Source of the DNA: Pirellulales bacterium
Lineage (GTDB): Bacteria; Planctomycetota; Planctomycetia; Pirellulales; UBA7805
Assembly (NCBI GenBank): GCA_041744995.1
Contig: JBGTJT010000417.1
Span: forward strand, 1 to 37,258
Direction of reading: 5' to 3'
Length of the DNA stretch: 37,258 nucleotides
The notes below the pieces were generated by a model. The model ran no database searches. It was not told where the DNA came from and saw nothing but the letters and a program-made list of their open reading frames with translations. Shown here piece after piece: positions 3,617-34,611 of this stretch; the first letter of the stretch is position 1, and each line of letters starts with the position of its first letter. The translations under genes and the position numbers were made by a program.

Positions 3617-6600
3617 ATGAGAGATTGCATTCAAGCCATTCTGATACTGCTTCTGGCGGTCGCTTGCGGCGCGACGGCGAAGGCGGAGTCGAAGCCCTCT
3701 GCCAATGAGCAGCACTTCCAGGAGCAAGTCGCCCCGATCCTCGCCCGTCGCTGCCTGTCGTGCCATAGCGCGGCCGAGGCCAAAGGCGATATCTCGCTGG
3801 AGACCTTCCAGCACCTCGATGAAAACGGCTTTGTCGAACCGGGCGACGCCGACGGCAGCTACCTGGTCGAACTGCTCACGCCGAATCTCGGCAAGGCCGC
3901 CATGCCCAAGAATGCCGATCCACTTTCCGAGGAGGATCTGGCGGCGGTCAAGCAATGGATCGACGACGGCGCGCACTGGCCGGCGGAGTTTCGGATCGAA
4001 GAACCCCAGGTGGCCGACCTCGACTTCTGGTCGCTGAAGCCGCTCGCCCGGCCGGAACTGCCCAAGCTTATGCCCGAGGAAGCCGCCTGGTGCCGCAACG
4101 AAGTGGACTACTTCATCCGCGCCAAGCAGAAGGAACTCGGCCTGGCGCCTGCGCCGGAGGCCGACAAGCGGGTGCTGATTCGCCGGCTCTACTACGATCT
4201 GACCAGCCTGCCGCCGTCGCCGGAAGAGATCGAAGCATTCGTCGCCGACGAGGATCCGCAAGCCTACGAAAAGCTCGTCGATAAGCTGCTGGCCTCCGAA
4301 CGCTACGGCGAGCGCTGGGCGCGGCACTGGTTGGACGTGGTCCACTATGGCGACACGCACGGTTATGACAAGGACCAGCTCCGTCCCAACGCCTGGCCCT
4401 ATCGCGACTACGTGATCCGAGCGTTCAACGAAGACAAGCCGTACGCACGGTTCGTGCAGGAACAGGTCGCCGGCGACGTGCTGTGGCCCGACACCACCGA
4501 CGGCGTGGTGGCGACCGGCTTCATCGCGGCCGGGCCGTGGGACTTTATCGGCCACGCCGAGGTGCCGGAGACGAAGATCGACGGCATGGTCGCCCGCAGT
4601 CTCGATCGCGACGACATGGTCGGCAGCACCATGAGCACCTTTGTGAGCATGACGGCCCAATGCGCGCGGTGCCACAACCACAAGTTCGATCCGATCACCC
4701 AGGAAGATTACTTCAGCCTGCAAGCGGTATTCGCGGCGCTGGACCGCACCGACCGGCCGTACGAAAAGAGCGACGGCGTCGCCAAGCAACGCGCGGCGTT
4801 GACAGCCAAGCAAGAGACGCTGGAAGCCGAACTGGCCAAACTCGATGCCGCGGCGAAAGAACGAGGGGGCGAAGAGTTGCAGCGGCTCGACGGCCTGATC
4901 GCGCAACTGCAGGCCCAAAAGGATACGAAACTCGACAGGGCCGCCTTCGGCTACCACAGCGGCATCGAGTCGAACCCTGACGTCGAAAAGTGGGTGCAGA
5001 TCGACCTCGGCGGACCAACCTCGCTGTCAGAAATCATCTACGTCGCTTGCCACGACAACTTCGCCGGCATCGGCGCCGGCTTCGGCTTTCCGGTCCGCTA
5101 CAAGATCGAGGCCAGCAACGACCCGGCGTTTGAAAATGACGTGCAGACGATCGTCGACCATACCAAGGCTGACGTGGCCAACCCCGGCGTGGAGCTGCAA
5201 CGCGCCGCGGCCGACGGCGTCACGGCCCGCTACGTGCGGTTCACAGCCACCAAGCTCAGCTTGCGGCAGGCCGACTACATCTTCGCCCTGGGCGAGTTGA
5301 TGGTCTACTCCGCCGACGGCGTGAACGTGGCTGTGCGGGCGCCGGTCACGTCGCTCGACTCCATCGAAGCTTTGCCGCGGTGGTCGCGGGCGAACCTTGT
5401 CGACGGCTACTACTATGGCCTGACTGTTGATCCGGCCGTTAACGACAAGATACTGCAACATCAGGCCCAGCGCACCAAGTTGCTCGACACCCTGTTGACC
5501 GCCGAACAGAAGCAGCAGAGCCAGCAACTGGAGACCGAAGCCGCCAACACCGCACAGGAACTGGCCGCCCTGCCCGCGCCCGGCATGGTGTACGCCGGCA
5601 CGGTCCACTATGGTGACGGCAACTTCCGCGGCACGCATGGCGTGCCGCGGGAGATTCACGTTCTCTCCCGTGGCGAGGTAACCCAGCCGCTCGCGCAGGT
5701 CGGCCCGGGTACGGTGCCAATTATCGAAGGAGTCGACCATCGCTGGGAGGAATTGCCGCTCGACGGCGAAGAAGGCCGCCGCCGCGTGAAGCTGGCCGAG
5801 TGGCTGGTCCGCGAGGACAATCCGCTTACCTGGCGGTCAATTGTCAACCGCGTCTGGCTGTATCACATGGGCCGCGGCATTGTTGATTCGCCCAACGATT
5901 TCGGCCGAATGGGGCAGCCGCCCACACATCCGGAGTTGCTCGACTGGCTGGCGGTGGAATTTCGCGACAACGGGCAATCGTTCAAGCAGATGCACCGGTT
6001 GATCTGCAACAGCGCCGCCTACCGGCAGTCGTCGCGGCACGACGAGGCGATGGCGGAGATCGACGGCAGCAACGCCTACTATTGGCGAGCCAACCGCCAA
6101 AAGCTGTCGGCCGAGTCGGTCCGCGACACCGTGCTGGTGTTGGCCGGTAAGATGAACTTCGCCATGTACGGCCCGGGCTTTCAGGATTTTGTGATCGAGA
6201 ATCCGGCCCACTCGCCGCACTACCAATATCACAAACACAATCCGGACGATCCCGCCTCGCACCGCCGCAGCATCTATCGCTTCCTGGTCCGCTCGCAGCA
6301 GCAGCCGTTCATGCAGACGCTCGACTGCGCCGACCCGTCGCAATCGATCGCCAAGCGCGACAAGACGCTCACCTCGCTGCAAGCGCTGACGATGATGAAC
6401 AACCAGTTCACCGTCCGCATGGCGGAGCATTTTGCCAGTCGCTTGCAAAGCGAGCGCGAGACGCTGCCGGAGCAAATCGCCCGCGGCTTTTATCTAGCGA
6501 CCGGTCGGGAACCGAGCGAAGTGGAGCGGCAGGCACTGGTCGACTACGCCGGCGCCCATGGTTTACCTAACGCCTGCCGTGTAATCATGAACCTGAATGA

Positions 6601-6619
6601 ATCGATGTTTTTAGACTAA
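3617..6619 (+). CDS. PSCyt/PSD1 protein (DUF1549 + discoidin-like + DUF1553)
   Basis: Signal peptide and a CLSCH CxxCH motif (planctomycete cytochrome C domain). DUF1549-like RRLYYDLTSLPPSPEEIEAF. Central F5/8 type C-like segment (WVQIDLGG...RYVRFTATK). C-terminal DUF1553-like region (RVWLYHMGRGIV, LQALTMMNN). Confidence 0.9.
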   Translation: MRDCIQAILILLLAVACGATAKAESKPSANEQHFQEQVAPILARRCLSCHSAAEAKGDISLETFQHLDENGFVEPGDADGSYLVELLTPNLGKAAMPKNADPLSEEDLAAVKQWIDDGAHWPAEFRIEEPQVADLDFWSLKPLARPELPKLMPEEAAWCRNEVDYFIRAKQKELGLAPAPEADKRVLIRRLYYDLTSLPPSPEEIEAFVADEDPQAYEKLVDKLLASERYGERWARHWLDVVHYGDTHGYDKDQLRPNAWPYRDYVIRAFNEDKPYARFVQEQVAGDVLWPDTTDGVVATGFIAAGPWDFIGHAEVPETKIDGMVARSLDRDDMVGSTMSTFVSMTAQCARCHNHKFDPITQEDYFSLQAVFAALDRTDRPYEKSDGVAKQRAALTAKQETLEAELAKLDAAAKERGGEELQRLDGLIAQLQAQKDTKLDRAAFGYHSGIESNPDVEKWVQIDLGGPTSLSEIIYVACHDNFAGIGAGFGFPVRYKIEASNDPAFENDVQTIVDHTKADVANPGVELQRAAADGVTARYVRFTATKLSLRQADYIFALGELMVYSADGVNVAVRAPVTSLDSIEALPRWSRANLVDGYYYGLTVDPAVNDKILQHQAQRTKLLDTLLTAEQKQQSQQLETEAANTAQELAALPAPGMVYAGTVHYGDGNFRGTHGVPREIHVLSRGEVTQPLAQVGPGTVPIIEGVDHRWEELPLDGEEGRRRVKLAEWLVREDNPLTWRSIVNRVWLYHMGRGIVDSPNDFGRMGQPPTHPELLDWLAVEFRDNGQSFKQMHRLICNSAAYRQSSRHDEAMAEIDGSNAYYWRANRQKLSAESVRDTVLVLAGKMNFAMYGPGFQDFVIENPAHSPHYQYHKHNPDDPASHRRSIYRFLVRSQQQPFMQTLDCADPSQSIAKRDKTLTSLQALTMMNNQFTVRMAEHFASRLQSERETLPEQIARGFYLATGREPSEVERQALVDYAGAHGLPNACRVIMNLNESMFLD

Positions 6620-6626
6620 CAACGTA

Positions 6627-6700
6627 GCAGCAGGCGGCTCGCCTGCTGCGAACTACCAACAACCCATAGCGCAACCCGCTACAGGCGAACCGCCTGTAGC
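6627..6700. repeat. Two related perfect 10-bp hairpins in the PSD1-DUF1501 spacer
   Basis: 6627-6649 is GCAGCAGGCG-gct-CGCCTGCTGC and 6678-6700 is GCTACAGGCG-aac-CGCCTGTAGC. They share a CAGGCG/CGCCTG core and neither is followed by a T-tract. Confidence 0.7.
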
Positions 6701-6719
6701 TACGACTTGGAGCCTACCC

Positions 6720-8177
6720 ATGAATCGCCGCAACTTCCTGATGAACCTCGGCGCCGGCTTTGGCGGCGTTGCGCTGAGTTCCATGCTCGCCCGCGACGGG
6801 CTGCTGGCAGCAACCGCAGCCAGCGGCGGCGATACGCAGATCATCCATCATCCGCCCAAGGCGAAGCGGGTTGTGCAGATGTTCATGGCCGGCGCGGCGA
6901 GCCACTTGGATACATTTGACTACAAGCCCGCGCTCATCAAGCACCACGGCGAGAAGAGCGACTTCGGCGAGCATGTCGAGGCCTTCCAGAACGGGCTGGG
7001 ACCATGGCTCAAGTCGCCGTTTGCGTTCAAGCAGTATGGCGAAACCGGCAAGTACCTCAGCGACCCGGTGCGGGCGCTCGGCGATTGCGTCGACGACATC
7101 GCCTTTATCCACAATCTGGTCGGCAAGACGGGCGTCCACAGCCAGGCCACGCTATTGCAGGCGACCGGCTTCCAGCGGCCCGGCTTCCCCGGCATGGGCG
7201 CTTGGGTCAGCTACGCGCTGGGGAGCATGAACGAGAACCTGCCGACCTTTGTTGTGATGCCCGACCGCCGCGGCTTGGCCTCCAACGGGCAGAAGAACTG
7301 GAGCAGCGAGTTCCTGCCGGCGCAACATCAAGGCACGATCTTCCGCGCGGGCGAAGAGAATCCGATCCGCGACCTGTTCCCGGCGGAGAACAGCTACATC
7401 AACAGCGACAGCGATGCCGCCGCGCTGGCCGTAATGAAACAACTTAACCAATTGCACGAGGCCGACCGTGCCGGCGACTCGCGGCTGGAAGCCCGCATCC
7501 GCAGTTACGAGCTAGCGGCCAAGATGCAACTGAGCGCGCCGGAAGCGGTCGACCTGTCGGGCGAGCCGGCGCATATCCTCAAGCTGTACGGATTGGATCA
7601 CGGCAAAAGCACCTGGCCCAACGAGATCAACGCCCGGGAAGAGATCGACTACTTCGGCCGCAAGTGTCTTGTGGCCCGGCGGCTGCTGGAGCGGGGCGTG
7701 CGGTTCGTGCAGATCTGGTCGGGCTGCGATAACGGTTTCCCCAGGCGCAACTGGGATTCGCACGAGGACATCGCCCGCGACCACGGTCCGCTGGCTGAAG
7801 GGATGGCGGTCGGCGCCGCGGCATTCATCCAGGATCTCAAGCAGCGGGGGATGCTCGACGACACGAGCGTCCTGTGGACGACCGAGTTCGGCCGCATGCC
7901 GAGCAGCCAGGGAGGCACGGGACGCGATCACAACCCGTTCTGTTTCACCAACTGGCTGTCCGGCGGCGGCATTAAACCGGGCGTCAGCTACGGCGAGAGC
8001 GACGAGTGGGGCTACAAGCCGCTCGATCGCAGCAACCCCACGCAGGTCTACGACATCCACGCCACCATCCTGCACCTGCTGGGCATCGACCACACCAAGC
8101 TCACCCTCCGCCACGACGGCATCGACCGCCGCCTGACCGATGTGCATGGGCACGTAATCCCTGATATCCTGGCGTAA
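6720..8177 (+). CDS. DUF1501 domain protein (sulfatase-like fold) with Tat-type signal
   Basis: MNRRNFLMNLGAGFGG twin-arginine-like N-terminus. Motifs MFMAGAASHLDTFDYKP, TEFGRMP and GRDHNP. It is the usual downstream partner of DUF1549/DUF1553 genes. Confidence 0.9.
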   Translation: MNRRNFLMNLGAGFGGVALSSMLARDGLLAATAASGGDTQIIHHPPKAKRVVQMFMAGAASHLDTFDYKPALIKHHGEKSDFGEHVEAFQNGLGPWLKSPFAFKQYGETGKYLSDPVRALGDCVDDIAFIHNLVGKTGVHSQATLLQATGFQRPGFPGMGAWVSYALGSMNENLPTFVVMPDRRGLASNGQKNWSSEFLPAQHQGTIFRAGEENPIRDLFPAENSYINSDSDAAALAVMKQLNQLHEADRAGDSRLEARIRSYELAAKMQLSAPEAVDLSGEPAHILKLYGLDHGKSTWPNEINAREEIDYFGRKCLVARRLLERGVRFVQIWSGCDNGFPRRNWDSHEDIARDHGPLAEGMAVGAAAFIQDLKQRGMLDDTSVLWTTEFGRMPSSQGGTGRDHNPFCFTNWLSGGGIKPGVSYGESDEWGYKPLDRSNPTQVYDIHATILHLLGIDHTKLTLRHDGIDRRLTDVHGHVIPDILA

Positions 8178-8182
8178 GAATC

Positions 8183-8244
8183 GTTTAACCTGCAGCCGCA
8201 GGCGCAGGCGGCGTCGGGATCGATGTGCGGTGGGATTGTTAAGC
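8183..8244 (+). other. attC-like imperfect palindrome (candidate cassette recombination site)
   Basis: GTTTAAC (8183-8189) fits RYYYAAC and GTTAAGC (8238-8244) fits GTTRRRY. They pair over 7 bp with one G-U. An inner CCGCA (8196-8200) pairs with TGCGG (8226-8230) after 6/7-nt spacers. The site starts 6 nt after the DUF1501 stop. Confidence 0.45.
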
Positions 8245-8432
8245 GGCGGCGTGCAAGACATTCATGTTAGCCAACTCATGATAACGGACTTACGTCGTTG
8301 CGCCCGCCATTGACGATGGACCGAGTCTGGATGTTGGGTTTGAGGCCAAGAGAGCGCGTTCGCTGGCCAGTTATTTCAAGACTGACAGAGCACCAGGTAT
8401 CGCCTGCGGCGGTGCCGCCTCAGGGGAAGTTC

Positions 8433-8499
8433 TTGCTACTCCTTTAGTAATGTACTATAATCAAGACTAATAGCCCATAATATGTTCACTCTATAGTAC
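8433..8499 (+). promoter_or_regulatory. hipBA promoter with inverted-repeat operator candidate
   Basis: TTGCTA (8433-8438), a 17-nt spacer, then TATAAT (8456-8461). The inverted repeat GTACTATA (8452-8459) / TATAGTAC (8492-8499) overlaps the -10 box and ends 3 nt before the hipB ATG. The patch is locally AT-rich. Confidence 0.45.
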
Positions 8500-8502
8500 G
8501 TT

Positions 8503-8838
8503 ATGCCGAGTAGTAAACAAGCGTTCCTGCCGAAGCACCAGCGAGTATTCAAGCAAGTTGGAGAGCAACTTCGTTTGGCCCGCCTGCGGCGTCGACTCTC
8601 CGCGGCGCAGGTTGCAGAGCGGGCAGGGATCAGCCGCAACACGCTCTATTTGTTGGAAACCGGTAGCGCCAGCTCTTCGATCGCCACCTTGTTCCGGGTG
8701 TTGATTGTACTTGGCCTGCAAGAAGACTACGCGCAGATTGCTATGAACGATGAACTGGGCAGGCGAATTCAAGACGCGAAACTCTCTAGCCCGCGCAAGC
8801 GCGCCCCCAAGCGATCTCAAACGAAACGAAGCGATTAG
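8503..8838 (+). CDS. hipB: XRE-family HTH antitoxin, HipB-like
   Basis: HTH segment LRLARLRRRLSAAQVAERAGISRNTLYLLETG. The stop lies 6 nt before hipA. Confidence 0.8.
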   Translation: MPSSKQAFLPKHQRVFKQVGEQLRLARLRRRLSAAQVAERAGISRNTLYLLETGSASSSIATLFRVLIVLGLQEDYAQIAMNDELGRRIQDAKLSSPRKRAPKRSQTKRSD

Positions 8839-8844
8839 AACCGC

Positions 8845-10110
8845 ATGACGCGTGAGATTCATGTTTTCGGTGATTGGCGAGAGCTGGGCGGCGCGCAGCG
8901 AATCGGACTATTGCGCGCCGATCGGGTTCATGGTGCGGAAACATTTTCATTTGAATATGACTCTACGTGGTTGGAAAGCGGCCACACGTTCCAGCTCGAT
9001 CCTGAGTTGCAGTTTTACGAGGGGCCTCAGTATACGGGTAACAAGCGGAACTCAAACTTTGGACTCTTCCTGGACTCAAGCCCCGACCGCTGGGGACGAA
9101 CGATCATGACACGTCGCGAGGCTATCCTCGCACGACAAGAGAATCGCGACCCGGGCATTCTCTATGAATCAGACTACTTGCTCGGTGTCCACGATCAGCA
9201 GCGGATGGGAGGATTGCGGTTTAAGGAAGAACAGGATGGCGAATTCTTGTCCAGTTATGATGGCCAGGATGCACCACCATGGGCGCGTCTTCGCGAGTTG
9301 GAGAACGCCGCCTGGCAAATCCAGACGCACGATCGCAATCATGATTCTGAGGTGAGAGAATGGATCCATCTCTTGATGGCGCCGGGTTCATCCATCGGCG
9401 GCGCTCGACCCAAGGCGGGTGTTTGCGATGAAGACGACAATCTATGGATCGCCAAATTCCCAGGCCGCAACGACGAGTTCGATGTCGGTGCGTGGGAAAT
9501 GGTGGCTTACCGGTTGGCTGTGAACGCCGGCTTGAATATCGCGGAGTCCCAGGCTGTTAAATTCGGCAGGCCCCACCACACTTTTATGACGAAGCGTTTC
9601 GACCGCGTTGTCGATAATCTGGAAACGAAACGCCTGCACTTTGCCTCAGCCATGACAATGCTCGGATACGCGGATGGAGCCAGCCATCACGAGGGGGCAA
9701 GTTATCTCGAGATCGTGGAATTCCTGATGCAACATGGCGCCGAAGTCGAAGTCGATTTGCACGAACTCTGGCGGCGGATTGTATTTTCGATATGTGTCAC
9801 GAACACCGACGACCATCTTCGCAATCACGGCTTCCTCCTGGAAAACGGCGGCTGGAAACTCTCGCCCGCGTTCGACCTGAACCCGAATCCGGACGGCGCC
9901 GGATTGCATCTGAATATCTCGGAAGCCGATAACGCGCTAAGTCTCGACTTGGCCCGTGGTGTTGCCGAATTATTTCGTTTAGGCGGGGCTGAGGCCGATA
10001 CTATCATTCAACAGGTGCTGGCGTCCGTCGCTCAGTGGAGCGATGAGGCTGATAAACTGGGGATTGCTCGCCACGAACAAGAGCAGATGAAACGGGCGTT
10101 TCGGATTTAG
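8845..10110 (+). CDS. hipA: Type II toxin HipA-family serine/threonine kinase
   Basis: HipA N-terminal coupling region (AETFSFEYDSTWL), GSSIGGARPK, and the catalytic loop NTDDHLRNHGFL. Confidence 0.9.
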   Translation: MTREIHVFGDWRELGGAQRIGLLRADRVHGAETFSFEYDSTWLESGHTFQLDPELQFYEGPQYTGNKRNSNFGLFLDSSPDRWGRTIMTRREAILARQENRDPGILYESDYLLGVHDQQRMGGLRFKEEQDGEFLSSYDGQDAPPWARLRELENAAWQIQTHDRNHDSEVREWIHLLMAPGSSIGGARPKAGVCDEDDNLWIAKFPGRNDEFDVGAWEMVAYRLAVNAGLNIAESQAVKFGRPHHTFMTKRFDRVVDNLETKRLHFASAMTMLGYADGASHHEGASYLEIVEFLMQHGAEVEVDLHELWRRIVFSICVTNTDDHLRNHGFLLENGGWKLSPAFDLNPNPDGAGLHLNISEADNALSLDLARGVAELFRLGGAEADTIIQQVLASVAQWSDEADKLGIARHEQEQMKRAFRI

Positions 10111-10324
10111 CTGGCCGCCTTCCATGAAGGGCTAATGCTACCGCAGAAGAACGAATACTGGTGCGACACCGCCCCAGCATGATCGACAACACAAGAAAGG
10201 TGTACAAGATCACCTTCGAGTCATAGCTTCTCCGCCCCCACGCCGCCCGCGCTGCTTGCTCGGGCCAGCACCGCTCCCTTACAATCCCCAATAGGCGGAG
10301 CCAACGCGCGGATCCGCGGCTGAA

Positions 10325-10386
10325 GTTCAACTGCGTTTTATCGCTCATCGCTCCGTGACGAGACGATAAAATGCTATTCGTTGCGA
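10325..10386 (+). other. attC-like imperfect palindrome (alternatively a hipBA terminator hairpin)
   Basis: GTTCAAC (10325-10331) fits RYYYAAC, and the distal end is GTTGCGA (10380-10386). Pairing is CAAC/GTTG (4 bp), then GCG/TGC, then a perfect 8-bp TTTTATCG/CGATAAAA, with an asymmetric 1/5-nt spacer. Confidence 0.45.
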
Positions 10387-10492
10387 TTACATCGTCACAT
10401 TCAATACACGCGACTTCCAAGACGTTGAAGCCTTCGGGGTGCAAGCTGTGCGGCCGGTCGAGTTTTTGCGAATCCTAGGTGAAATCCCATGA
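10370..10492 (+). pseudogene. PIN-domain toxin, C-terminal remnant only (about 40 codons)
   Basis: Translation is NAIRCDYIVTFNTRDFQDVEAFGVQAVRPVEFLRILGEIP*. The xDYIVTxNxRDF pattern followed by a (T/R)PxEFL tail is the usual PIN toxin C-terminus. An in-frame TAA sits at 10367 and no N-terminal PIN sequence lies upstream. The stop overlaps the next ATG (ATGA). Confidence 0.45.
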
Positions 10493-10728
10493 GCACAACC
10501 CTTAGTTTGCGACTACCGAACTCCATCCACAAGCAGCTCAAAGAGTATGCCGAGCAGGATGGCATTTCGATGAATCAATTCATCGCCACGGCGGTGGCCG
10601 AGAAACTGGCGTCGCTGGCGACAATCGAATATCTGGAGCAGCGCGCTCAGCGTGGCAGCAAAGAGAAATTCAACGCGCTGCTGGCCAATGCGCCGGACGT
10701 CGAGCCGGCGGAAGACGACAAGCTTTAA
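10489..10728 (+). CDS. Ribbon-helix-helix antitoxin (HicB-like/Arc-type)
   Basis: MSTTLSLRLPNSIHKQLKEYAEQDGISMNQFIATAVAEKLASL is a typical RHH antitoxin N-terminus. It overlaps the PIN remnant by 4 bp. Confidence 0.75.
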   Translation: MSTTLSLRLPNSIHKQLKEYAEQDGISMNQFIATAVAEKLASLATIEYLEQRAQRGSKEKFNALLANAPDVEPAEDDKL

Positions 10729-11083
10729 GCGACAATTCAATCATGCGATCCGGCCGACGACGAACAGCACTAAAGTTCGGGACGGAAAAGTCCAGCGGAA
10801 GAATCGTTCTGCTTTGACCCCGAACTACACGAACACGCCACAAGCCCGGCCGGCAGTGGATCGTCAGCGGCCGGGCGCCGGGTTTCGCCATCTCATCACC
10901 AAGAAGCAGCTCTACCAGTTTGATGCACATCTTCTTGCATGAACTAGGCCACCATCACGACCGCATGACGACCAAGTCGAAGCGTCGATCAAGTCGTGGA
11001 GAGGCATACGCTGAGCAATACGCAAATCGATATGCGAATCACATCTGGGATGCGTACTTCAGTTCATTCGGTTGGTGATCCCT

Positions 11084-11308
11084 ATGATCGGCCAGAAGTG
11101 GACCATCACGAAAGACGACATCTCCGACTGGACCTGGGAAGCCAAGACAATTTTCAACGACCCATATTCGATAACGATTCCCGATCCAGAGCACTCCGAT
11201 GAGGAGGAACGTTGGCTGGATATCGGCATATCCGCTGATGGCCGGCTGCTGGTGGTATGGTATACTGAACGTGGCGAGAAAATACGAATAATCGGCTTCT
11301 CGCGTTAG
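11084..11308 (+). CDS. brnT: BrnT-like (DUF497) toxin, shortened, with no BrnA partner
   Basis: FNDPYSITIPDPEHSDEEERWLDIGISADGRLLVVWYTERGEKIRIIG matches the DUF497 core (F-DP...D..HS..EER...G......L.VV.T.R...IRII). The 3' end runs into repeat A1. An alternative TTG start lies at 11072. Confidence 0.55.
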   Translation: MIGQKWTITKDDISDWTWEAKTIFNDPYSITIPDPEHSDEEERWLDIGISADGRLLVVWYTERGEKIRIIGFSR

Positions 11309-11310
11309 GT
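11264..11310 (+). other. Short attC-like hairpin at the BrnT-like 3' end
   Basis: ACTGAAC (11264-11270) ... GTTAGGT (11304-11310, fits GTTRRRY). Pairing is AACG/CGTT plus CGAGAA/TTCTCG with a 3-nt bulge (tgg). At 47 nt it is short for an attC. Confidence 0.35.
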
Positions 11311-11481
11311 TGAAACGCGTGGGCACTACTTGTGATTGTGACCGCGTTGATTTTCGTCGTTATTGACCGAATCGCATGCGCCCGATCGTTTTGGTATGCT
11401 AAACATCGCCGGCGGATGGAGCTGACCGAAAGCGCACCGGACAAAGGACAGGCCTCCGGCTCGGCAACTCATTCGCCAACC
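11293..11481 (+). repeat. Repeat family A, copy 1 (about 189 nt, noncoding)
   Basis: Aligns by hand to 14312-14501 with about 17 differences. It starts CGGCTTCTCG(C/T)GTTAGGTTGAAACGCGTGG and ends GCCAACC about 30 nt before the next start codon. Confidence 0.85.
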
Positions 11482-11510
11482 AAGTACCCGACTGAAATCT
11501 CATCCCGAAC

Positions 11511-11987
11511 ATGGACGAATCACCATACGCTTCACCGCGATACACCGCTGACTCATCCATGCCATCCGCAACGCGTCCGCTCGATACCCTGTGCTTCGTC
11601 ATTAATTTCGCGGTTGCCATCCTCTTCTTGATCGCGTGCGTTGTCTCGATTGGTGCCGCCGACAATTTCTTCGCCTTCATTGGCGGTTTGCTTTTTGTGC
11701 TCCCGGTTTGCTGCTACGCGATCGCCGAATGGGTATGCTGGTACCGAAAACGGCACTGGCTTTTTCGCCAACTCGGGATATTAAACCTACTGCTTGCCGG
11801 ATTCGTCGTGTTTGGACTTGTAACAAATGTCGGCGAGGCATTTATGGCCGACGAACCGATTGATCCCTGGTTCATCACAATATTTGGGAGTGGCTTCGCA
11901 TTCGTCGCGGGTTACCTTGTTTGGTGTGGATGGCGACGCTTTCACGCGATCCCCAGTGTACCCGACACGATCCAGAACGACGGGTAA
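11511..11987 (+). CDS. Small integral membrane protein (about 4 TM helices), unknown function
   Basis: Hydrophobic segments include LCFVINFAVAILFLIACVV, FIGGLLFVLPVCCYAIAEWV, ILNLLLAGFVVFGLV and FITIFGSGFAFVAGYLVW. Confidence 0.55.
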   Translation: MDESPYASPRYTADSSMPSATRPLDTLCFVINFAVAILFLIACVVSIGAADNFFAFIGGLLFVLPVCCYAIAEWVCWYRKRHWLFRQLGILNLLLAGFVVFGLVTNVGEAFMADEPIDPWFITIFGSGFAFVAGYLVWCGWRRFHAIPSVPDTIQNDG

Positions 11988-12224
11988 ATCGGGGAAGTGC
12001 GGTCAATCGCTGTCCGCGCTGCCCACAACATCTGGCATGCGCCGTCCGCACCAGGCGGTTCGACGTAGTGGAGCAAGCTCGGCGTAGAAAGATGTTGAAG
12101 TCTGCCGCTTTGACCCTTAAAATACGAATTGGATGATGCCGTCCTGCTCGAGCCAGTGTAGGGGCAGCGGCGGGGAGGCCGTGCTTGGTCTATGCGTTTG
12201 GGGATCTCTTCACGGGGACAAGAA

Positions 12225-12455
12225 ATGTCAACCGAAAGTATTTCTATTACCGTTGACGCCGATGCAGCTCGTACGTTCTGCCAAGCATCGCCCGATGCGC
12301 GTCGCAGAATAGAGTTTCTTCTCGGCCTGCGTTTGCGTGAACTGACCTCGAAAGATGCACGTTCTTTGCAGGTGATTATGGACGAGATCGGCACGGAGGC
12401 GGAGGCTAAGGGACTTACGCCCGATATGGTGGAGTCGATGCTACGTGACGACTGA
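12225..12455 (+). CDS. Putative antitoxin of a PIN-toxin pair
   Basis: The ATG at 12225 is preceded by GGGGA. The protein is small and acidic (MSTESISITVDADAARTF...GLTPDMVESMLRDD). Its stop overlaps the start of a PIN-like ORF. Confidence 0.5.
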   Translation: MSTESISITVDADAARTFCQASPDARRRIEFLLGLRLRELTSKDARSLQVIMDEIGTEAEAKGLTPDMVESMLRDD

Positions 12456-12588
12456 TTGGCGGACGGTCCTCGACACTGGCGTGGCAGTCAGCGCCATATT
12501 GCTCACGACACCCTATGATTCCGTTGAGCACATGCAGTCGGAAGTCCAGAGAGATATAAACGAGTGGACAGAGGTCGACGGCACCTAA
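12445..12588 (+). pseudogene. PIN-domain toxin, N-terminal remnant (47 codons)
   Basis: A GTG at 12445 overlaps the antitoxin stop. VTTDWRTVLDTGVAVSAILL resembles the PIN N-terminus (vvLDTNVlvSall). The ORF stops after 47 codons, with the TAA lying inside ACCTAAC of the next palindrome. Confidence 0.4.
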
Positions 12589-12645
12589 CCACCGGCTGCC
12601 GTTGACCGGCGACGCCCGCGAGTACAATGAGGCGGTCGGTTGGAC
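12583..12645 (+). other. attC-like imperfect palindrome
   Basis: ACCTAAC (12583-12589) fits RYYYAAC exactly and GTTGGAC (12639-12645) fits GTTRRRY exactly. Pairing is 12585-12590 with 12638-12643, then 12591-12594 with 12633-12636, with one bulged C at 12637. Confidence 0.45.
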
Positions 12646-12702
12646 GCCTGCTCCCGCGGGTGGCCGGCAACTGAGCCTTTTACGTTCTGCCAATAAGAAA
12701 CG

Positions 12703-13368
12703 ATGCCGTTCGCTGTGGAACATGATGGTTTCGCGATCGCTCAAGGCATTGTCGCCGAGACGGATCGTCGCCTCCTGCTCGATGCGTTGGGCGTCCCGCA
12801 AGGTGCTGGTGCGCGTGGGGTGCTCGCCGCTTCCGCTGTTCGGGCATTTGCGCGATCCGAAGCGATTGAGTCGCTTGTGTCAGCATATCTCGGTGGTCGC
12901 CCGATGCCGGTTCGGGCAATCTTCTTCGATAAATCATCGTCTTCGAATTGGCTCGTTCCATGGCATCAAGACCTGACTATCGCGGTAGCGAGCAAGTGCG
13001 AGGCGCCAGGATTTGGGCCGTGGAGCATGAAGGATGGGATTCCGCATGTCCAGCCGCCCGATGAATTGCTCAAGCAGATGATCGCGTTGCGGCTTCATCT
13101 CGATGATTGCGATGCGTCGAATGGAGCCCTGCGAGTAATCCCGGGGTCGCATAAATCCGGTCGGCTGAATCCCGATCAGATTTCCGCTGTGCGAGCATCA
13201 TCCGCAGAGGTGGTGTGCGAGGCTTCAGCGGGAGATGCTCTCCTCATGCGGCCGCTTCTCCTTCATGCGTCGAGTAAGTCCGTCAGTAATCGGCGAAGGC
13301 GGATCCTCCATATCGAGTATTGCTGCGGCGAGCTTCCCGCGGGCATGACGTGGCACGATGCGGCATAA
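12703..13368 (+). CDS. Phytanoyl-CoA dioxygenase (PhyH) family Fe(II)/2-oxoglutarate oxygenase
   Basis: WLVPWHQDLTIAV (the H-x-D iron ligands), GALRVIPGSHKSG and LLHASSKS are typical of the PhyH family. Confidence 0.8.
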   Translation: MPFAVEHDGFAIAQGIVAETDRRLLLDALGVPQGAGARGVLAASAVRAFARSEAIESLVSAYLGGRPMPVRAIFFDKSSSSNWLVPWHQDLTIAVASKCEAPGFGPWSMKDGIPHVQPPDELLKQMIALRLHLDDCDASNGALRVIPGSHKSGRLNPDQISAVRASSAEVVCEASAGDALLMRPLLLHASSKSVSNRRRRILHIEYCCGELPAGMTWHDAA

Positions 13369-13497
13369 TCAGGGCAGGCAGAATCTCGTTCGTCGCGTAC
13401 CAATGAGAGAGGCCGCTTGACGGTGACGGTCAACGAACGCGACAACGATTTGGACGAAGGGCGGTTGACCTTTGAATCGTCGCCTCGTTTATTAACT

Positions 13498-13878
13498 ATG
13501 TCGATGCGCCTCGGTCTGCTGAGTCATGTCCTCGCTCCCGCACTGCTTGTTCAGTTGAACCTTCGACTGGGCATATCCTCGTCGCAACTGTGCCAGATCG
13601 ACCATATTGAGAATGCTGGCTGCCCCGTTCTCGTTGCTGGCGGAGACCGCGACGCTCATACAACGTTTCTGGAGACTCAACGGCTCTTTCAGGCAGCATG
13701 GGAACCGAAGCAACTTGTTATCTTCGAGGGTGCGGCTCACAATGATTTGTTGACGTACGACCATGACAAGTATTGCGAGATCGTAGCGTTCCTCGATGCG
13801 CACTTGTCGATTAACGCAACCGAGAACAAACTCGTCCAGCAAGCCACAGAACAAGCGGATGAACGCGAACCGGAATAG
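13498..13878 (+). pseudogene. Alpha/beta-hydrolase C-terminal fragment
   Basis: CPVLVAGGDRDAHTT...LVIFEGAAHNDL carries the acid and His portion of the catalytic triad, but no GxSxG nucleophile region is present. The last 9 codons are supplied by repeat B1. A TTG at 13417 would extend the ORF. Confidence 0.5.
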
Positions 13879-13915
13879 GTCGGCTGGCTCGCATTGCTTG
13901 GCAACCTCAACTCCC
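13845..13915 (+). repeat. Repeat family B, copy 1 (attC-like, degenerate)
   Basis: Shares CACAGAACAAGCGGATGAACGCGA...AATAGG...CTGGCTCGC...GGCAAC...AACTCCC with 15328-15410. It folds through CAAGC/GCTTG, ATG/CAT and CGA/TCG. The distal GTT is replaced by CTT. Confidence 0.75.
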
Positions 13916-13946
13916 GGCCCCGTGATACGGGTCGTGCGATCTTGAT

Positions 13947-14327
13947 ATGGAGACCGACAGACCCAATATTCTGTTCGTTTGTGGCCGCAACCAGTGGCGC
14001 AGTCCCACGGCTGCGCGCTTGTACGCCAATGACCAAAGGATCAATGTTCGCTCCGTTGGCATGAGCCCAAGGAGTAACCGCCGGATCTCAAGCGCGGACA
14101 TCGAATGGGCAGATCTCGTTCTCGTTATGGAGCGCAAGTACAAGGCCAGGCTCCTCGGGACTTTTCGCGATCTTGATCTGCCAGTGATCGAATCGTTGGA
14201 GATTCCGGATACCTACCAGTACATGGATGAAGAACTGTTGCAACTCATCCGGGAAGGAACCGAGTTCTGTCTCCGTAGTAGGCTCGGGATCGAACCAACC
14301 GCTGGATCAGACGGCTTCTCGTGTTAG
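13947..14327 (+). CDS. Low-molecular-weight phosphatase-like protein (COG4551-type predicted protein tyrosine phosphatase)
   Basis: ILFVCGRNQWRSPTAA is a CX5R(S) P-loop. WADLVLVMERKYK and LEIPDTYQYMDEEL also fit this family. The last 4 codons lie in repeat A2. Confidence 0.7.
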   Translation: METDRPNILFVCGRNQWRSPTAARLYANDQRINVRSVGMSPRSNRRISSADIEWADLVLVMERKYKARLLGTFRDLDLPVIESLEIPDTYQYMDEELLQLIREGTEFCLRSRLGIEPTAGSDGFSC

Positions 14328-14501
14328 GTTGAAACGCGTGGGGCACTGCTCGTGCCTGGGACCGCGTTGATGTTCGTCGTTATTGACCGAATCGCACGCG
14401 CCCGATCGTTGTGGTATGCTAAACATCGCCGGCGGATGGAGCGGAGCGAAACCGCACCGGACAAAGGACGAGCCTCCGGCTCGGCAACTCATCTGCCAAC
14501 C
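14312..14501 (+). repeat. Repeat family A, copy 2 (about 190 nt, noncoding)
   Basis: See 11293-11481. It contains GTTAGGT at 14323-14329 and ends about 33 nt before the ATG at 14535. Confidence 0.85.
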
Positions 14502-14534
14502 TGTTCTGTGCCTCAACTGAAGCAGCCCCAAGAA

Positions 14535-15128
14535 ATGGAAAACTTGCTGGATGATTCACCGCGAATACTGATTGTCGCTGGCCCGAATGGATCGGGGAAG
14601 ACGACGCTTGCGCTCGAGTACTCGCGGGAATTTGGGCTTCCCTACGTGGGCGCCGACGCGATTGCTGCGACGCTGAATCCCGCCAATCCCATGGCTGCCC
14701 AAGTAGCTGCGGGCAGGCAGTTCCTACAAACGCTGGAAGAATACACGTCGCAGAAGACGTCCTGCGTCTGCGAATCGACTCTTTCCGGTTTGACGATGCG
14801 GAACTTCATCGCGTCGGCGACGAAGGCTGCGTATTCCATCGACATGGCGTTTCTGTTTGTAGATTCTGCAGACGCATGCGTTGCCCGAGTCGCCGAACGT
14901 GTCCGAAAGGGCGGCCACGACGTTCCGGAATCAGACATTAGACGCCGATTCAAGAGGTCGCTTCGCAACTTCTGGCGAATCTATCGTGAACTGGCCGATA
15001 ACTGGGTATTGGTTTATAATGGCTTGACAACGATGCAGGACGTCGCGAGCGGCTCCCGCGACCAAACCACGGTTCGGAATCAAGAACTCTACTCGGCCTA
15101 TTTGGCACTTGTTGGTGAAACACCATGA
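14535..15128 (+). CDS. Zeta-toxin-like / COG4185 P-loop ATPase
   Basis: Walker A ILIVAGPNGSGKTT. The downstream RVRKGGHDVPESDIRRRF segment is typical of zeta/PezT-like kinases. The ATG at 14535 was chosen because the upstream part of the ORF is repeat A. Confidence 0.75.
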   Translation: MENLLDDSPRILIVAGPNGSGKTTLALEYSREFGLPYVGADAIAATLNPANPMAAQVAAGRQFLQTLEEYTSQKTSCVCESTLSGLTMRNFIASATKAAYSIDMAFLFVDSADACVARVAERVRKGGHDVPESDIRRRFKRSLRNFWRIYRELADNWVLVYNGLTTMQDVASGSRDQTTVRNQELYSAYLALVGETP

Positions 15129-15361
15129 TTCGACCTCGATTGACTGCCGAAACTTATGCGACTATTGATGAGATTGTCCGCGTGGGAAATCGTGCCGTCG
15201 CCAAGGCCCAGGACGAAAGTAGGCGGCTGGGAGTTCCGAACGTCTACTCGATCAATGGCCGACTCTATTACGAGACATCCACCGGCGAACTCTCCACGAC
15301 AGACCCTTACGACAACGGTCCGCGCGTCACAGAACAAGCGGATGAACGCGAGGCGGAATAG
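15125..15361 (+). CDS. Small protein translationally coupled to the zeta-like ATPase (possible antitoxin)
   Basis: ATGA overlap with the ATPase stop. 78 aa. The last 9 codons (EQADEREAE) are supplied by repeat B2. Confidence 0.45.
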   Translation: MIRPRLTAETYATIDEIVRVGNRAVAKAQDESRRLGVPNVYSINGRLYYETSTGELSTTDPYDNGPRVTEQADEREAE

Positions 15362-15410
15362 GCCGGGCTGGCTCGCTCATCGTGTTCGGCAACATCCTCA
15401 CCGAACTCCC
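15328..15410 (+). repeat. Repeat family B, copy 2 (attC-like hairpin)
   Basis: ACAGAAC (15329-15335) ... GTTCGGC (15384-15390). Pairing is GAACA/TGTTC, GATGA/TCATC and GCGAG/CTCGC (5+5+5 bp) with bulges on the 5' arm. Confidence 0.75.
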
Positions 15411-15489
15411 ACCCGCGTTTGCACTTTCTAAAGGCACTACGGTTGAAGTCAATCTCGATGAAGTGTTGTCGGTTCGAAATCGCTAACCA

Positions 15490-16656
15490 TTAAGACATCG
15501 TCCACTCGACGACTTCGCCCGCGAGATTGGCCGTGTTGACGGCTCGGAAGGAACGGCGTTCGCGAGATTTCGCGGGCACGTCGAACTGGTTGCCGGCGAT
15601 GGCTTCCCAGGGACCGGTGGCAACGCGCGACTCGAAATGGCTGAAGTTGGGCGCCCAGGTCGACAGCGTCAGGCGCGTGCCGCCGTCGGGCAGTTCGGTG
15701 CAGGCAACTTCCGTGCGTCCGACCGGCCAGTTGATCGACGGCTTCTGGTCGGCGAGCAACTGCTCCGCCTCGGGGATCAGTGGCGGGATGATCTTGCCTG
15801 GCGGGGCGGCCAGGAAGAATTGCTTCACCGCGGCGGGATGCCCGGGCGGATAGTGCGAACCCAGGTAGTCGTTGCGGTGGGCGTAGTAAAGATACTGCCC
15901 GAATTCCAGGTTCATACCGGTCACGCTGCCGCCGCGCATGTTCCTTTCCCGCAGCGACTCGCCGGCGGCGCCCAGGGCAACGACCTCGACGCCGCTCAGT
16001 TCACCGCACCGTCCCTTGTGTCGCTTGACGGAATCCAGGACGGCGTCCGGCGGCAATCGTGCGTCGACACCGAGTTGCTGTTTCAGCTCGCTCCACGCCT
16101 GCTGCAGATCGAGCGCCCCAAGCCATTGTCCCGCCCGGCGGTAAGCCACATTGAAGTCGCAATCGATCAGCACCCACTGTCCGTGCTGCGGCAAGTAAAC
16201 CTCGGTGGCGGCATGCCCCAATCTGCTGCCGTCGCGGCTCATGCCGAGTAGTCGCGCGGTGTAGCCGCGGGTAATCAGGGCATGCCCAAGCAGCAACGCG
16301 AACGGTCGGCAGGTAAGCGGCGTGCCAGAGCGGGCCAGCCGCAGCAATTGGTGCGGGTCGTCCATGCCTGGCGGCCGATCGGCCACGCCATGTTCGGTCA
16401 GCCCGCGGAGCCGATCGCAGATTTCAAACGGATCGTGCCGCCCGTCGAGCACCTTTTCGCACGCCTCGGCAAACTGCACCACGCGGGGGTGGCCGAGCGC
16501 CTCGTGCTGAAAACTCTGGGCAAGCGATGCCGCGCCGCTGCCGCCGCCGGGAGCACCTGGACCGTAGTCGACCTCCGTCCGCACCGACGGATCATAGACC
16601 CGATACGCGGCCGCGGCCAGCTTCAGCTTGGTTCTTCGCAGCCAGTGGGTCGCCAT
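15490..16656 (-). CDS. Transglutaminase-like superfamily protein
   Basis: The Cys-His-Asp pattern TCRPFALLLGHALITRGYTARLLG ... GHAATEVYLPQHGQWVLIDCDF fits the family. The start was set at MATHWLRR (16656) to avoid overlap with the upstream gene. Confidence 0.6.
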   Translation of the reverse strand: MATHWLRRTKLKLAAAAYRVYDPSVRTEVDYGPGAPGGGSGAASLAQSFQHEALGHPRVVQFAEACEKVLDGRHDPFEICDRLRGLTEHGVADRPPGMDDPHQLLRLARSGTPLTCRPFALLLGHALITRGYTARLLGMSRDGSRLGHAATEVYLPQHGQWVLIDCDFNVAYRRAGQWLGALDLQQAWSELKQQLGVDARLPPDAVLDSVKRHKGRCGELSGVEVVALGAAGESLRERNMRGGSVTGMNLEFGQYLYYAHRNDYLGSHYPPGHPAAVKQFFLAAPPGKIIPPLIPEAEQLLADQKPSINWPVGRTEVACTELPDGGTRLTLSTWAPNFSHFESRVATGPWEAIAGNQFDVPAKSRERRSFRAVNTANLAGEVVEWTMS

Positions 16657-16690
16657 CAGCCGTCCGTTCCGTGGTATCGTGCGTGGCGTG

Positions 16691-17866
16691 CTAGCGTGGC
16701 TGCATATAGGCGGACAGGTTGCCGCGCGTCGCCTGCGGAGGAACCGCGTCGGCGATATCCTTGTCATCGGCCAACGTAAAGGCGATGACCAGCGGAAATT
16801 TCCCCTCCGGCGGATCAGGATTGTACCGGCCGGCGCCCCAATGTTCCCCGAGGACCAGCAGGTCGAAGCGAGTCAAGCCAAAGCGGTTCGCTGTTACCAG
16901 GCCCCGCAGTTTCGCTCGGTATCCCCGCTCGCCGTCGGCGGTTTCAAGATGCAGCTCTCCCTGCAGGATGCCGTCGGCCAGCGTCAAGTCGCATTGGCGA
17001 ATCTCGTCGGCCCGCCACATGGGCGGCTCGCCCCGGGTGTTGTCGACCAAATGAAACCGCGCGATTCGTTGCCGTAGCGACTCGGGAACGGCGCCGTCGA
17101 CGATCGAGCGAATCTCGTCGGCGGTAATCCACAGGTTGTCGCGGGAAACCGCCTGCTGGCGTATCGCCAGTCGCTCGTCCTCGGTCGAATCGTAGCCGCC
17201 CAACACCTGGGCCTGCACTCGCACAGTCGCCACGTCGGCCGGCCGGGTGATGTTCCAGTTGTCTTGGGAGTCGTCGTCCTCAATCGCCTGGTACTCCGCG
17301 CCGCGGGCGAGCAGCACGGTAAACTCGTTAGCGGCTTCGACCAGCTTCTGATGCAGGAAATTGGCGGAATGGGTGTTGGAATAATGAAACAGTTTGCCGT
17401 CCGGCGCGGCGATGTAATAGCCTTGCGTCGTCAGATTGAAATCCCGGCGGGGGCCTTGGCCGGCGATCTTGCGATAGAACTCGCCTTCGGCGTCTTGCTG
17501 TCGACGCTCGTTGGCCTGATTGATCGCTACCGGGACGAACCGCGTCCGCAGCAGCCGAATGATGCGAGGATCGGAGAAGACCGACACGCGGCCGATGACG
17601 CCGTTGTTTCACGTGCAGCCCAGCGGATTACCGTCCATCGCCCAGATGAAAATCGGCATCTGCCGTTGGGCCGCCTCGCGTTGCGCAGCCAGTAGTTCGA
17701 TCTTCCAGGGCACGGTCCGCCACGCTTCGTCCGGAATGGCCGCGTACCGCCGATGCGCCTGCTCGAACTTCTGCCGGAAGAGTTCGGTCTCGTCCGCGGT
17801 GGCGACGCCGGGGGCGGCAACGAACAGAGCAAGCGACATTGTGAAATAGGAGTAGGAATGTCGCAT
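16691..17866 (-). CDS. Secreted thioredoxin-like (Thioredoxin_7/DUF255-like N-domain) protein with one in-frame TGA at 17609-17611
   Basis: ORFs 17609-17887 and 16691-17587 share a frame and are separated only by a TGA. The ATG at 17866 is preceded by GGAGG 7 nt upstream. Signal peptide FTMSLALFVAAPGVATA. The junction reads PIFIWAMDGNPLGCT-TGA-NNGVIGRVSVFSDPRIIRLL. It is either a selenoprotein or a pseudogene. Confidence 0.55.
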
Positions 17867-20893: not shown

Positions 20894-20995
20894 TATAGAG
20901 ATTAGGCGCGATTGTTCCAAAACTACGCGAACCGCCAGTCGATGCCGCCAATTCGAGAGTTCGGTCAAACTGGACAATACCCAAAATGATACACA

Positions 20996-22084: not shown

Positions 22085-22119
22085 ATCAGGTGAAATTCCT
22101 TTGGTGCGGAGTTCAAGAA

Positions 22120-22992: not shown

Positions 22993-22997
22993 GTTGG

Positions 22998-26010: not shown

Positions 26011-26424
26011 ACGCTTCGGGAGAAATGGGCCGCTTGCAAGGAAAATATCAGCCAGAGCAATAGGGAAGGCACGAGCAAGTTACTAATACACATCAAATCA
26101 GCTCAGCAACGGGGCATGGCCCAATTTTAATCGGTACCACGGCGACAGCGCAGGCCGAGCCTACGTAGCATAGTTGATGGCTATGGTTCAGACAAATGGC
26201 CGCCGCCGGTTTTTAATTCTCCGGCCCGCGATTGAAAGGCTGGCGACTCGTCGTGGAACTGGCCGCTCTCTTGGTTTAGGATAGGGAACGGAAATCGCGG
26301 TAAAGATTCGATCGGTAGCCGATTCTCAATCGATACTTCGCCATCGTTAGTTCGATTCGGCTTCACCACGACATTCGTTCGCTCAAGCGTTAGACTTGTT
26401 GGCTGTGTTCAAGGGGATGCCAGG

Positions 26425-28442: not shown

Positions 28443-28503
28443 GTTGTATCCAAGTTATCTGGCGAGAAGCTAGCCAAGGGAGGACGGTTCGCGGTGCAAC
28501 AAT

Positions 28504-30318: not shown

Positions 30319-30329
30319 TCGACTCTTGA

Positions 30330-31352: not shown

Positions 31353-31375
31353 TCGAGTTATCTTTGCGACCGCAA

Positions 31376-32371: not shown

Positions 32372-32427
32372 TCCGGCTAATGACTTCCTGACACCGTTAC
32401 ATGAAGACGTCGTCTCGCCTTCGAAAG

Positions 32428-34606: not shown

Positions 34607-34611
34607 ATTGC

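Follow-up and report, generated by a model that had tools for sequence, protein, structure and literature searches.

A probable gene-cassette array, out of contact with its integrase and in decay, in the chromosome of an uncultivated Pirellulales-like planctomycete

One question raised by the stretch of DNA analysed here is how about 13 short, functionally unrelated open reading frames (ORFs) came to be lined up in one direction between two flanking genes. The window is a whole metagenomic contig of 37,258 bp, and its gene content (PSCyt-type and DUF1501 proteins, DUF1559, and a large glycan-biosynthesis cluster) is typical of planctomycetes. The block in question, 8178-15489 (~7.3 kb), has a DUF1501 gene (stop 8177) as its left neighbor and a convergent transglutaminase-like gene, ending at 15490, on its right. 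Every sizeable ORF within it is on the + strand, and the block is rich in toxin-antitoxin genes and gene remnants. An earlier note on this DNA had described this arrangement accurately, with unrelated + strand ORFs between the DUF1501 stop and the convergent gene, and had read it as a cassette array of the integron type without an integrase in sight, rich in toxin-antitoxin modules and resembling a cluster of attC sites that has no integron integrase (CALIN). That core claim finds support in the arrays of related planctomycetes and in an attC model constructed from them. We consider it likely that the block is an integron gene-cassette array out of contact with its integrase, of the CALIN type, residing in the chromosome of a Pirellulales-like planctomycete that has not been cultivated, and in the course of decay.

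The zeta-like cassette and its relatives

The best-documented cassette lies at the right-hand end of the block and consists of the genes for a zeta-like ATPase and a 78-residue partner (orf78). A search with the latter revealed 413 homologues, up to 99% identical and nearly all of 77-78 residues, most of which keep the C-terminal tail TEQxDEREPE. The ATPase and its partner are found as a pair in many different neighborhoods. In the window this tail belongs to a direct repeat, D2, the two copies of which (13845-~13940 and 15328-~15420) lie at ORF 3′-ends and supply the tail TEQADERE[PA]E and the stop codon to two unrelated ORFs; the 5′-arm of the repeat reads ACA GAA CAA GCG GAT GAA CGC GAG CCG GAA TAG, at 13849-13878 and 15332-15361. 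Neither D2 nor a second family of direct repeats at ORF 3′-ends, D1, had been remarked upon previously. The first D2 copy is 89.7% identical to an attC (8202-8288) downstream of the pair in the related loci L097/L098, whereas the adjacent coding DNA is 69.7% identical; the attC is therefore better conserved than the genes. L097 possesses two more D2-type copies behind other genes, giving three in all behind different genes, and a total of nine attC matches on one strand in 16 kb.

The most informative relative, L098 (JGI Ga0643512_0003710), is a complete integron. Its integrase, at 5395-6381 (-), scores 445 bits with TIGR02249 (cut-off 265), matches PF00589 and PF13495, and over 327 residues shares 49.8% identity with IntI1 (E=1.5e-89). 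Approximately 1 kb downstream, attCs at 7295-7385 and 8206-8299 (+) bracket a zeta-like plus orf78 cassette, the products of which show 65% and 77% amino-acid identity to those of the window. The two loci share the attC family and the 5′ junction GTTCTGT; they differ in that L098 retains an undamaged IntI ~1 kb upstream along with intact attCs, neither of which occurs in the window.

In the window, the cassette begins at G/TTCTGT (14503-14509; the slash marks the recombination point), which is the exact end of a copy of repeat D1. The GTTCTGT junction is common to the window, L094, L097/L098, and L101, and a different attC precedes it in each. DNA homology of the cassette to its other copies starts at 14503-14536 and extends to 15359-15419. 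Occurrence in other arrays, and next to an IntI, is established for the zeta-like plus orf78 cassette, and at least the right-hand units of the block prove to be genuine cassettes of a family circulating among related planctomycete integrons.

The attCs of this family possess the canonical layout R″(nnnGAAC), 5 nt, L″(GAT[G]AACG), loop, L′(CGTTATC), 6 nt, and R′(GTTnnnn), and measure ~95 nt. The attC at L097 11225-11319 (GACGAAC - AAGCG - GAT[G]AACG ... CGTTATC - CGAATC - GTTCGTC) has both helices paired at 7/7 positions; in the relatives the 3′ halves of R′ vary with the next cassette. Their geometry (7-5-8 ... 7-6-7) and near-consensus boxes are those of the Planctomycetes chromosomal integrons (PMC8352920), the model of which differs in reading GCCTAAC rather than nnnGAAC in R″ and GTTGCAGC rather than GATGAACG in L″. 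The filter profile of that covariance model (Ghaly et al. 2021, PMC8352920, Supplementary Data 1) is used here as the Planctomycetes attC profile, and a proxy covariance model, R1, was made from sequences sampled from it together with its consensus structure. On the relatives' elements R1 gives 33.8, 27.5, 26.5, 23.9, 21.9, 19.3 bits and lower (range 13-34), compared with 49.4, 47.9, 33.5, 28.5, 26.9, 19.4, and 16.6 bits on real class-1 attCs and no matches in 1.2 Mb of planctomycete and verrucomicrobial DNA.

Pairing and covariation were examined in 19 distinct attC sites from relatives, in an alignment which was fitted to the model and hence somewhat favors structure. Cells pair in 89.7% of cases, versus 72.2% in shuffles, and slid registers of the alignment reach 22-47%. 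Covariation is found in eight pairs, with a score of 0.372 versus 0.139 for shuffled alignments, 0/500 of which attained it. Both helices remain paired in this family owing to compensatory changes. As single sequences, the intact attCs form canonical hairpins of -17 to -26 kcal/mol, with z-scores (z) of -1.1 to -4.9.

Some further features of the relatives deserve mention. The D2-family attC, read in another frame in L097, ends a different gene as ...RTSG. In the cassette array of L097, a 590-kb contig, the features noted (8701-8866, 5881-5919, and 12523-12631) are tandem repeats of 12 nt (ACTCCTACTCCC and its complement), several repeats of 100-300 nt common to cassettes, and inserted insertion sequence (IS) elements (rve, DDE_Tnp_ISAZ013). 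L097 and L098 come from two samples, and their gene calls at 7423-8584, from the zeta-like gene onward, have equal locus coordinates, as do the attCs at 7295-7385 and 8206-8299, which also score equally; upstream of the shared region the integrase is present in L098, and other cassettes and an IS in L097. Judged by these coordinates and scores, the contrast suggests cassette reshuffling or different positions in the array.

attC sites of the window

A covariance model, R3, was constructed from 23 attC matches in the relatives, with no window sequence included, and run with filters off; its E-values derive from a short calibration and are rough. It recognizes both D2 copies as attCs, together with three marginal sites (Table 1). 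All five are on the + strand, and each is situated at an ORF boundary. The background of R3 at 11.7 bits or more amounts to two matches in ~240 kb of strand sequence, the first elsewhere in the window and the second in unrelated planctomycete DNA (86 kb); ~0.06 matches are expected in the + strand of the block, against the five observed. The background match of the window is at 36595-36680 (+; 15.4 bits, E=0.033), far from the array and adjoining the glycan-biosynthesis cluster. Several of its L pairs are broken, and it is probably a false positive.

Both D2 copies are damaged. At 13846-13940, the 5′-arm (R″ ACAGAAC, spacer AAGCG, L″ GAT[G]AACG) is followed, beyond the loop, by L′ CGTGATA (13921-13927), spacer CGGGTC, and R′ GTGCGAT (13934-13940), in which the invariant GTT has been changed to GTG. 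The earlier note had the start of this site right; the 3′-end is at 13940, not 13902. In the last attC, the 5′-arm is intact and L′ reads CGTTTGC (15413-15419), after which ACTTTC TAAAGGC replaces the spacer and GTTnnnn, so that R′ is absent. Here too the start had been correctly placed, and homology to the relatives extends to ~15419, where it ends. In comparison with intact members of the family, the GTTCGGC formerly taken as R′ falls in the loop; the local alignment of R3 used it as R′ as well. The G/TT recombination point is accordingly present at the start of the zeta cassette, but not at 13934 or in the last attC.

The marginal sites are more divergent. At 10295-10356 the R boxes GCGGAGC and GCTCCGT pair at 7/7 positions, with AGC/GCT in place of AAC/GTT; a site previously proposed at 10325-10386 overlaps this one in another register. 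The site at 12583-12690 comprises R″ ACCTAAC, L″ GCT[G]CCGT and L′ ACTGAGC (6/7 paired), and R′ GTTCTGC (12684-12690), ending 13 nt upstream of the PhyH start; its start agrees with that given before, and its 3′-end is most likely 12690 rather than 12645. The third, 14289-14378, lies over the end of the phosphatase-like ORF. Its R″ is ATCGAAC, its R′ GTTCGTC (14372-14378) is the R′ of the L097 attCs, and with the published Planctomycetes profile its 3′-arm reaches 10.8-13.0 bits. In the equivalent of this site at the other D1 copy (11264-11358), R′ is mutated to TTTCGTC.

Two more sites were recognized by eye. The candidate remnant at 10759-10813 shares its R″ with the L097 attCs, and its second spacer and R′ resemble the family; R3 gives no match there. 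At the left edge, 8178-8190 corresponds to the 3′-ends of intact attCs from both L097 and L100, and GAATCGTT occurs four times on the + strand of the window. It is suggestive, albeit post hoc, that these bases may be the last of a D2-family attC (consensus CGAATC then GTTnnnn).

No tyrosine recombinase, integrase, or IntI remnant is found among the ORFs of the 37,258-bp contig, and the best tblastn match of IntI1 to the contig has E=9.9, in keeping with the earlier note. Only 1 nt separates the end of the DUF1501 gene from the left edge of the array, and the pairing of intI and attI beside the first cassette that characterizes a complete integron is not found here. A CALIN is defined operationally as two attC sites <4 kb apart on one strand with no integrase (PMC4889954). 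The two D2 matches (13846-13940 and 15329-15390) are 1.4 kb apart and both on the + strand; the block thus falls within this definition when the lineage-specific R3 is used, and outside it with generic models. Like the CALINs described by Cury et al. (2016, PMC4889954), it possesses two or more attCs within 4 kb of each other on a single strand, no nearby intI, cassettes that differ from the ones in mobile resistance integrons, and no recognizable intI pseudogene, which is also true for 95% of CALINs (PMC4889954). It differs in that its attCs are eroded, one being truncated, and can be detected only when the model has been trained on close relatives.

Contrary evidence and alternative readings

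A number of results weigh against the block being a cassette array. Rfam yields nothing relevant in the window at gathering or E-value thresholds. With the Planctomycetes attC profile, nhmmer at maximum sensitivity attains E=0.59 at best (13850-13926), so that the window sites, unlike those of known Planctomycetes chromosomal integrons, lie below the profile threshold. The best R1 match of the window, 11.8 bits, is outside the block, and within it R1 gives at most 9.9 bits (13428-13470, E=1.4) and 8.8 bits (8183-8244), the two strands scoring alike. A GC-corrected 80-nt scan reveals no unusually stable hairpin at any block boundary, and none of the window sites folds as an attC hairpin (z +0.5 for 13846-13940 and -0.8 to -2.4 for the others). 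In 13846-13940, 7/14 model pairs are non-standard and the lowest-energy fold is not the attC hairpin; its high R3 score is largely due to sequence homology, including the loop, rather than preserved pairing. That the left-hand units, from hipBA to PhyH, were likewise inserted as cassettes we infer from context and from the marginal R3 matches (E 0.2-0.4). Finally, the left edge of repeat D1, which is discussed below, could not have been produced by IntI crossover at R′.

These data also bear on the ten palindromes which had been put forward as attC sites. All ten exist, yet as single-stranded DNA they fold about like shuffled sequence (z -0.4 to -2.5, or +0.3 to -2.8 with AAC/GTT pairing forced), and most are not borne out as described. 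The pair at 8183-8244 and 13428-13470 reaches 8-10 bits with R1 on both strands (E 1.4-3.5), and those at 10758-10811 and 12023-12064 have no model support. By comparison, five of six class-1 attCs from plasmids have z -4.4 to -6.7, the exception being the blaVIM-4 attC (-1.8), and the 80-nt scan detects class-1 array attCs at z -4.6 to -6.1. On the + strand of the contig, AAC...GTT in a loose R/L arrangement occurs 65 times; 19 of these sites lie in the block, versus 10.2 +/- 3.8 in shuffles, a weak excess. Taken by themselves, the generic models seemed to refute the claim by the standard that the earlier note had set, namely a lack of attC model matches above threshold at the sites listed. 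Two other explanations of the boundaries were discarded: a shared motif (GSCAAC, CAACTCAT) is not enriched, or is post hoc, and terminator-like sites, which would make the hairpins intrinsic terminators, occur at chance level. Structure-only tests are less decisive than first assumed, because intact attCs of the GC-rich D2 family themselves reach only the z-scores given above.

The alternative which survives best is that of an ordinary toxin-antitoxin or accessory islet, built by illegitimate and homologous recombination, the left two-thirds of which were never cassettes; only one or two fragments would then be of cassette origin, namely the zeta-like module together with its attC and, at 13846, a stray copy of an attC. 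The negative outcome of generic attC models and folding at every boundary favors it, as do the individually non-significant matches at 10295, 12583, and 14289, the presence of just two repeat families, and the many gene truncations resembling plain deletions. Such a reading was in fact adopted in the interim, after the generic models and folding, and was overturned by the search for orf78 homologues. We now regard it as unlikely, given that two significant and three marginal R3 matches lie on one strand at ORF boundaries where hardly any would be expected, that ~13 ORFs are co-oriented, that a canonical G/TTCTGT junction falls exactly at the end of repeat D1, and that the left edge resembles an attC 3′-end. 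Generic toxin-antitoxin and defense islands do resemble the block in their lower GC content, their clustering of toxin-antitoxin genes and remnants, and their position between conserved genes. They differ from it in that no known defense system is found in the window by PADLOC, and in its strict co-orientation and attC-family boundary elements, which together indicate assembly by an integron.

Repeat D1 calls for separate comment. Its two copies of ~190 nt are 91% identical and supply the tail GFS[RC] and the stop to BrnT and to the phosphatase-like ORF; the region of the second copy terminates at the G/TTCTGT junction (14503-14509). A protein-coding element can be ruled out, since the substitutions show no codon-position bias, and so can a structured one (folding z ~0). 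Similarity between D1 and D2 is weak (Smith-Waterman p 0.013-0.048; GCGGATG-N30-50-GGCAAC is found four times against 0.08 expected). A profile of D2 and D1 has no further members, a D1 22-mer has 0 matches in a metagenome scan, a D2 21-mer has three chance matches there within coding DNA, and a six-frame peptide search with D1 returns nothing. D1 starts at the identical nucleotide (CGGCTTCTCG) behind two unrelated 3′-truncated genes, within the region aligning as attC loop. It may conceivably record a cassette-level event outside classical IntI chemistry, in which a ~190-nt unit was joined inside an attC loop, although we give this idea little credence. Such a unit may have combined the 3′ two-thirds of one attC with a mini-cassette devoid of ORFs. 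Were this true, it would imply recombination within attC loops, or a small non-autonomous element made of attC parts, and would constitute a way of truncating and re-pairing cassettes.

A third possibility is that the array is still active, its functional, lineage-specific attCs scoring poorly and an IntI elsewhere in the genome reshuffling its cassettes. Half of genomic CALINs co-occur with an IntI elsewhere (PMC4889954), the window is a single 37-kb contig, and weak z-scores alone are no proof of decay because intact family attCs also fold modestly. We nevertheless hold this to be very improbable in view of the GTG for GTT, the broken pairs and the non-hairpin fold at 13846-13940, the missing R′ of the last attC, and the several cassettes which are gene fragments.

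On the favored reading of a cassette array in decay, the block would have arisen by established integron biology, in which an IntI tyrosine recombinase inserts circular cassettes singly, recombining the folded strand of attC at G/TT. The ORFs would be co-oriented because cassette insertion is polar. Toxin-antitoxin cassettes (hipBA, RHH/PIN, BrnT, and the zeta-like pair) would carry their own promoters, and would tend to persist because their loss harms the cell. The array would later have been parted from intI by rearrangement or deletion, as suggested by a last attC without R′ and a left edge of ~8 nt of an attC end. Subsequent deletions would account for the truncation of the PIN, BrnT, and hydrolase genes, and point changes at attCs for GTG in place of GTT. 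We infer that the array has been severed from intI and is now largely immobile; most or all cassettes are probably no longer excisable.

Genes of the block, comparisons, and significance

The features of the window are listed in Table 1. HipB and HipA, the ribbon-helix-helix (RHH; HicB-like) antitoxin, BrnT, and the AAA_33/Zeta_toxin ATPase exceed Pfam cut-offs. Type II toxin-antitoxin modules are therefore present in the block, and for the zeta-like pair a toxic role is predicted from sequence. Among the gene labels assigned earlier, hipBA, RHH/HicB-like, BrnT, PhyH, and zeta-like ATPase have clear Pfam matches; the first PIN remnant, the hydrolase, and the phosphatase (for which LMWPc is below cut-off) are weak, and for the antitoxin with PIN remnant claimed at 12192-12588 neither ORF has family support.

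Table 1. Coordinates of genes, attC-like sites, and repeats in and beside the block
Feature	Position	Strand	Remarks
Putative array left edge	8178-8190	+	GAATC then GTTTAAC, directly after DUF1501 stop
hipB	8503-8838	+	HTH_31/HTH_3 Pfam match
hipA	8845-10110	+	HipA_C E=1.7e-48; toxin-antitoxin pair with hipB
Marginal attC-like site, hipA/PIN-remnant gap	10295-10356	+	R3 12.7 bits, E=0.2
PIN-toxin gene 3′ remnant	10370-10489	+	NF046100 PIN family positions 97-129/177, E=0.0046 (weak)
RHH/HicB-like antitoxin gene	10489-10728	+	HicB E=1.4e-8
Candidate internally deleted attC remnant	10759-10813	+	GACGAAC ... AGAATC then GTTCTGC; by eye only, weak
HExxH-motif ORF	10818-11078	+	no start codon; no family match
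BrnT toxin gene	11072-11308	+	BrnT_toxin E=6.9e-15; profile match ends at position 69/77
Repeat D1 copy a	11293-11481	+	non-coding composite of attC-derived sequence
Membrane protein ORF, 158 residues	11511-11987	+	no family match
87-residue ORF	12192-12455	+	no family match
47-residue ORF	12445-12588	+	overlaps 87-residue ORF; no family match
Marginal attC-like site	12583-12690	+	R3 12.3 bits, E=0.26
PhyH-family dioxygenase ORF	12703-13368	+	PF05721 E=2.9e-18
Alpha/beta-hydrolase gene 3′ fragment	13417-13878	+	weak matches: C-terminal parts of DLH, UilS lactonase
attC, D2-family copy a, eroded	13846-13940	+	95 nt; R3 47.9 bits, E=7.6e-12; R2 46 bits
Low-molecular-weight phosphatase-like ORF	13947-14327	+	LMWPc E=4.4e-4 (below cut-off); Wzb E=0.0049
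Marginal attC-like site over phosphatase-like ORF end	14289-14378	+	R3 11.7 bits, E=0.4; R2 12.6 bits
Repeat D1 copy b	14312-14501	+	3′ half (~14417-14509) occupies expected attC place of preceding cassette
Zeta-like ATPase plus orf78 cassette	14504-15361	+	best-documented cassette; starts TTCTGT
AAA_33/zeta-like ATPase	14535-15128	+	AAA_33 and Zeta_toxin Pfam matches
orf78, 78-residue partner	15125-15361	+	ATGA start/stop overlap with ATPase
attC, D2-family copy b, truncated, array right edge	15329-15421	+	R3 19.1 bits, E=0.0025 (15329-15390)
Transglutaminase-like gene	15490-16767	-	convergent right flank of block

Several of these genes carry marks of truncation or of their neighboring repeats. 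Upstream of hipB, a promoter-like TTGCTA-17-TATAAT (8433-8461) and an operator-like inverted repeat of 12 nt (8448-8459 / 8492-8503; TAATGTACTATA / TATAGTACGTTA) resemble the promoter and operator of an autoregulated hipBA. Of the PIN partner of the RHH antitoxin gene, only a remnant is left. BrnT is shortened at its C-terminus, its last five codons and stop being supplied by D1 copy a, and its partner BrnA is missing; the last five codons and stop of the phosphatase-like ORF derive from D1 as well. The last ten codons of the hydrolase fragment (TEQADEREPE and stop) are the attC 5′-arm read in frame, and this tail agrees exactly with the orf78-family consensus.

The G+C content (GC) of the block is 0.53-0.58 versus 0.61-0.66 for the adjacent flanks, which agrees with the lower value estimated earlier by eye; the remaining contig (20-37 kb) is likewise 0.55-0.60. 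The glycan-modification cluster at 18872-36400, mostly on the - strand, has a GC of 0.55-0.60, low like that of the cassette block. It encodes a GDSL/beta-helix protein, sugar-nucleotide dehydratase, nucleotidyl transferase, GT2, GNAT, DegT aminotransferase, PMT_2, acyltransferase_3-SGNH, sulfotransferase, and GT4. The most stable 80-nt DNA folds of the contig are at 6576-6705, 5571-5700, and 346-455 (GC-corrected z -3.4 to -4.6); one of the three sits between a PSCyt-type gene and the DUF1501 gene, and none is within the cassette block. A scan of genome contigs with DUF1501 for an empty orthologous site found only paralogue-like loci of 75% identity, without synteny. The transglutaminase-like flank has a single homologue, of 59% identity, whose neighbor is not DUF1501, and exact-sequence look-ups of the flanking proteins returned no record.

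In the Vibrio superintegron, toxin-antitoxin cassettes are interspersed in a long co-oriented array and are thought to stabilize it. The window is similar in having several toxin-antitoxin modules scattered through a co-oriented cassette array. It differs in belonging to another phylum, in its toxin-antitoxin families, and in its attCs, which are heterogeneous and decayed rather than ~90% uniform; its toxin-antitoxin genes are co-oriented with the array.

The general understanding of integrons is unchanged by this locus, which belongs to a kind of element already known. It contributes a documented example of a cassette array in decay, from a planctomycete lineage that has been poorly sampled, and illustrates that eroded or lineage-specific attCs evade generic models and folding, and can be recovered by tracing a cassette into related arrays which bear an integrase. 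It also identifies a widely spread cassette, consisting of a zeta-like ATPase and its 78-residue partner, whose conserved C-terminal tail, TEQxDEREPE, results from in-frame reading of the attC 5′-arm.

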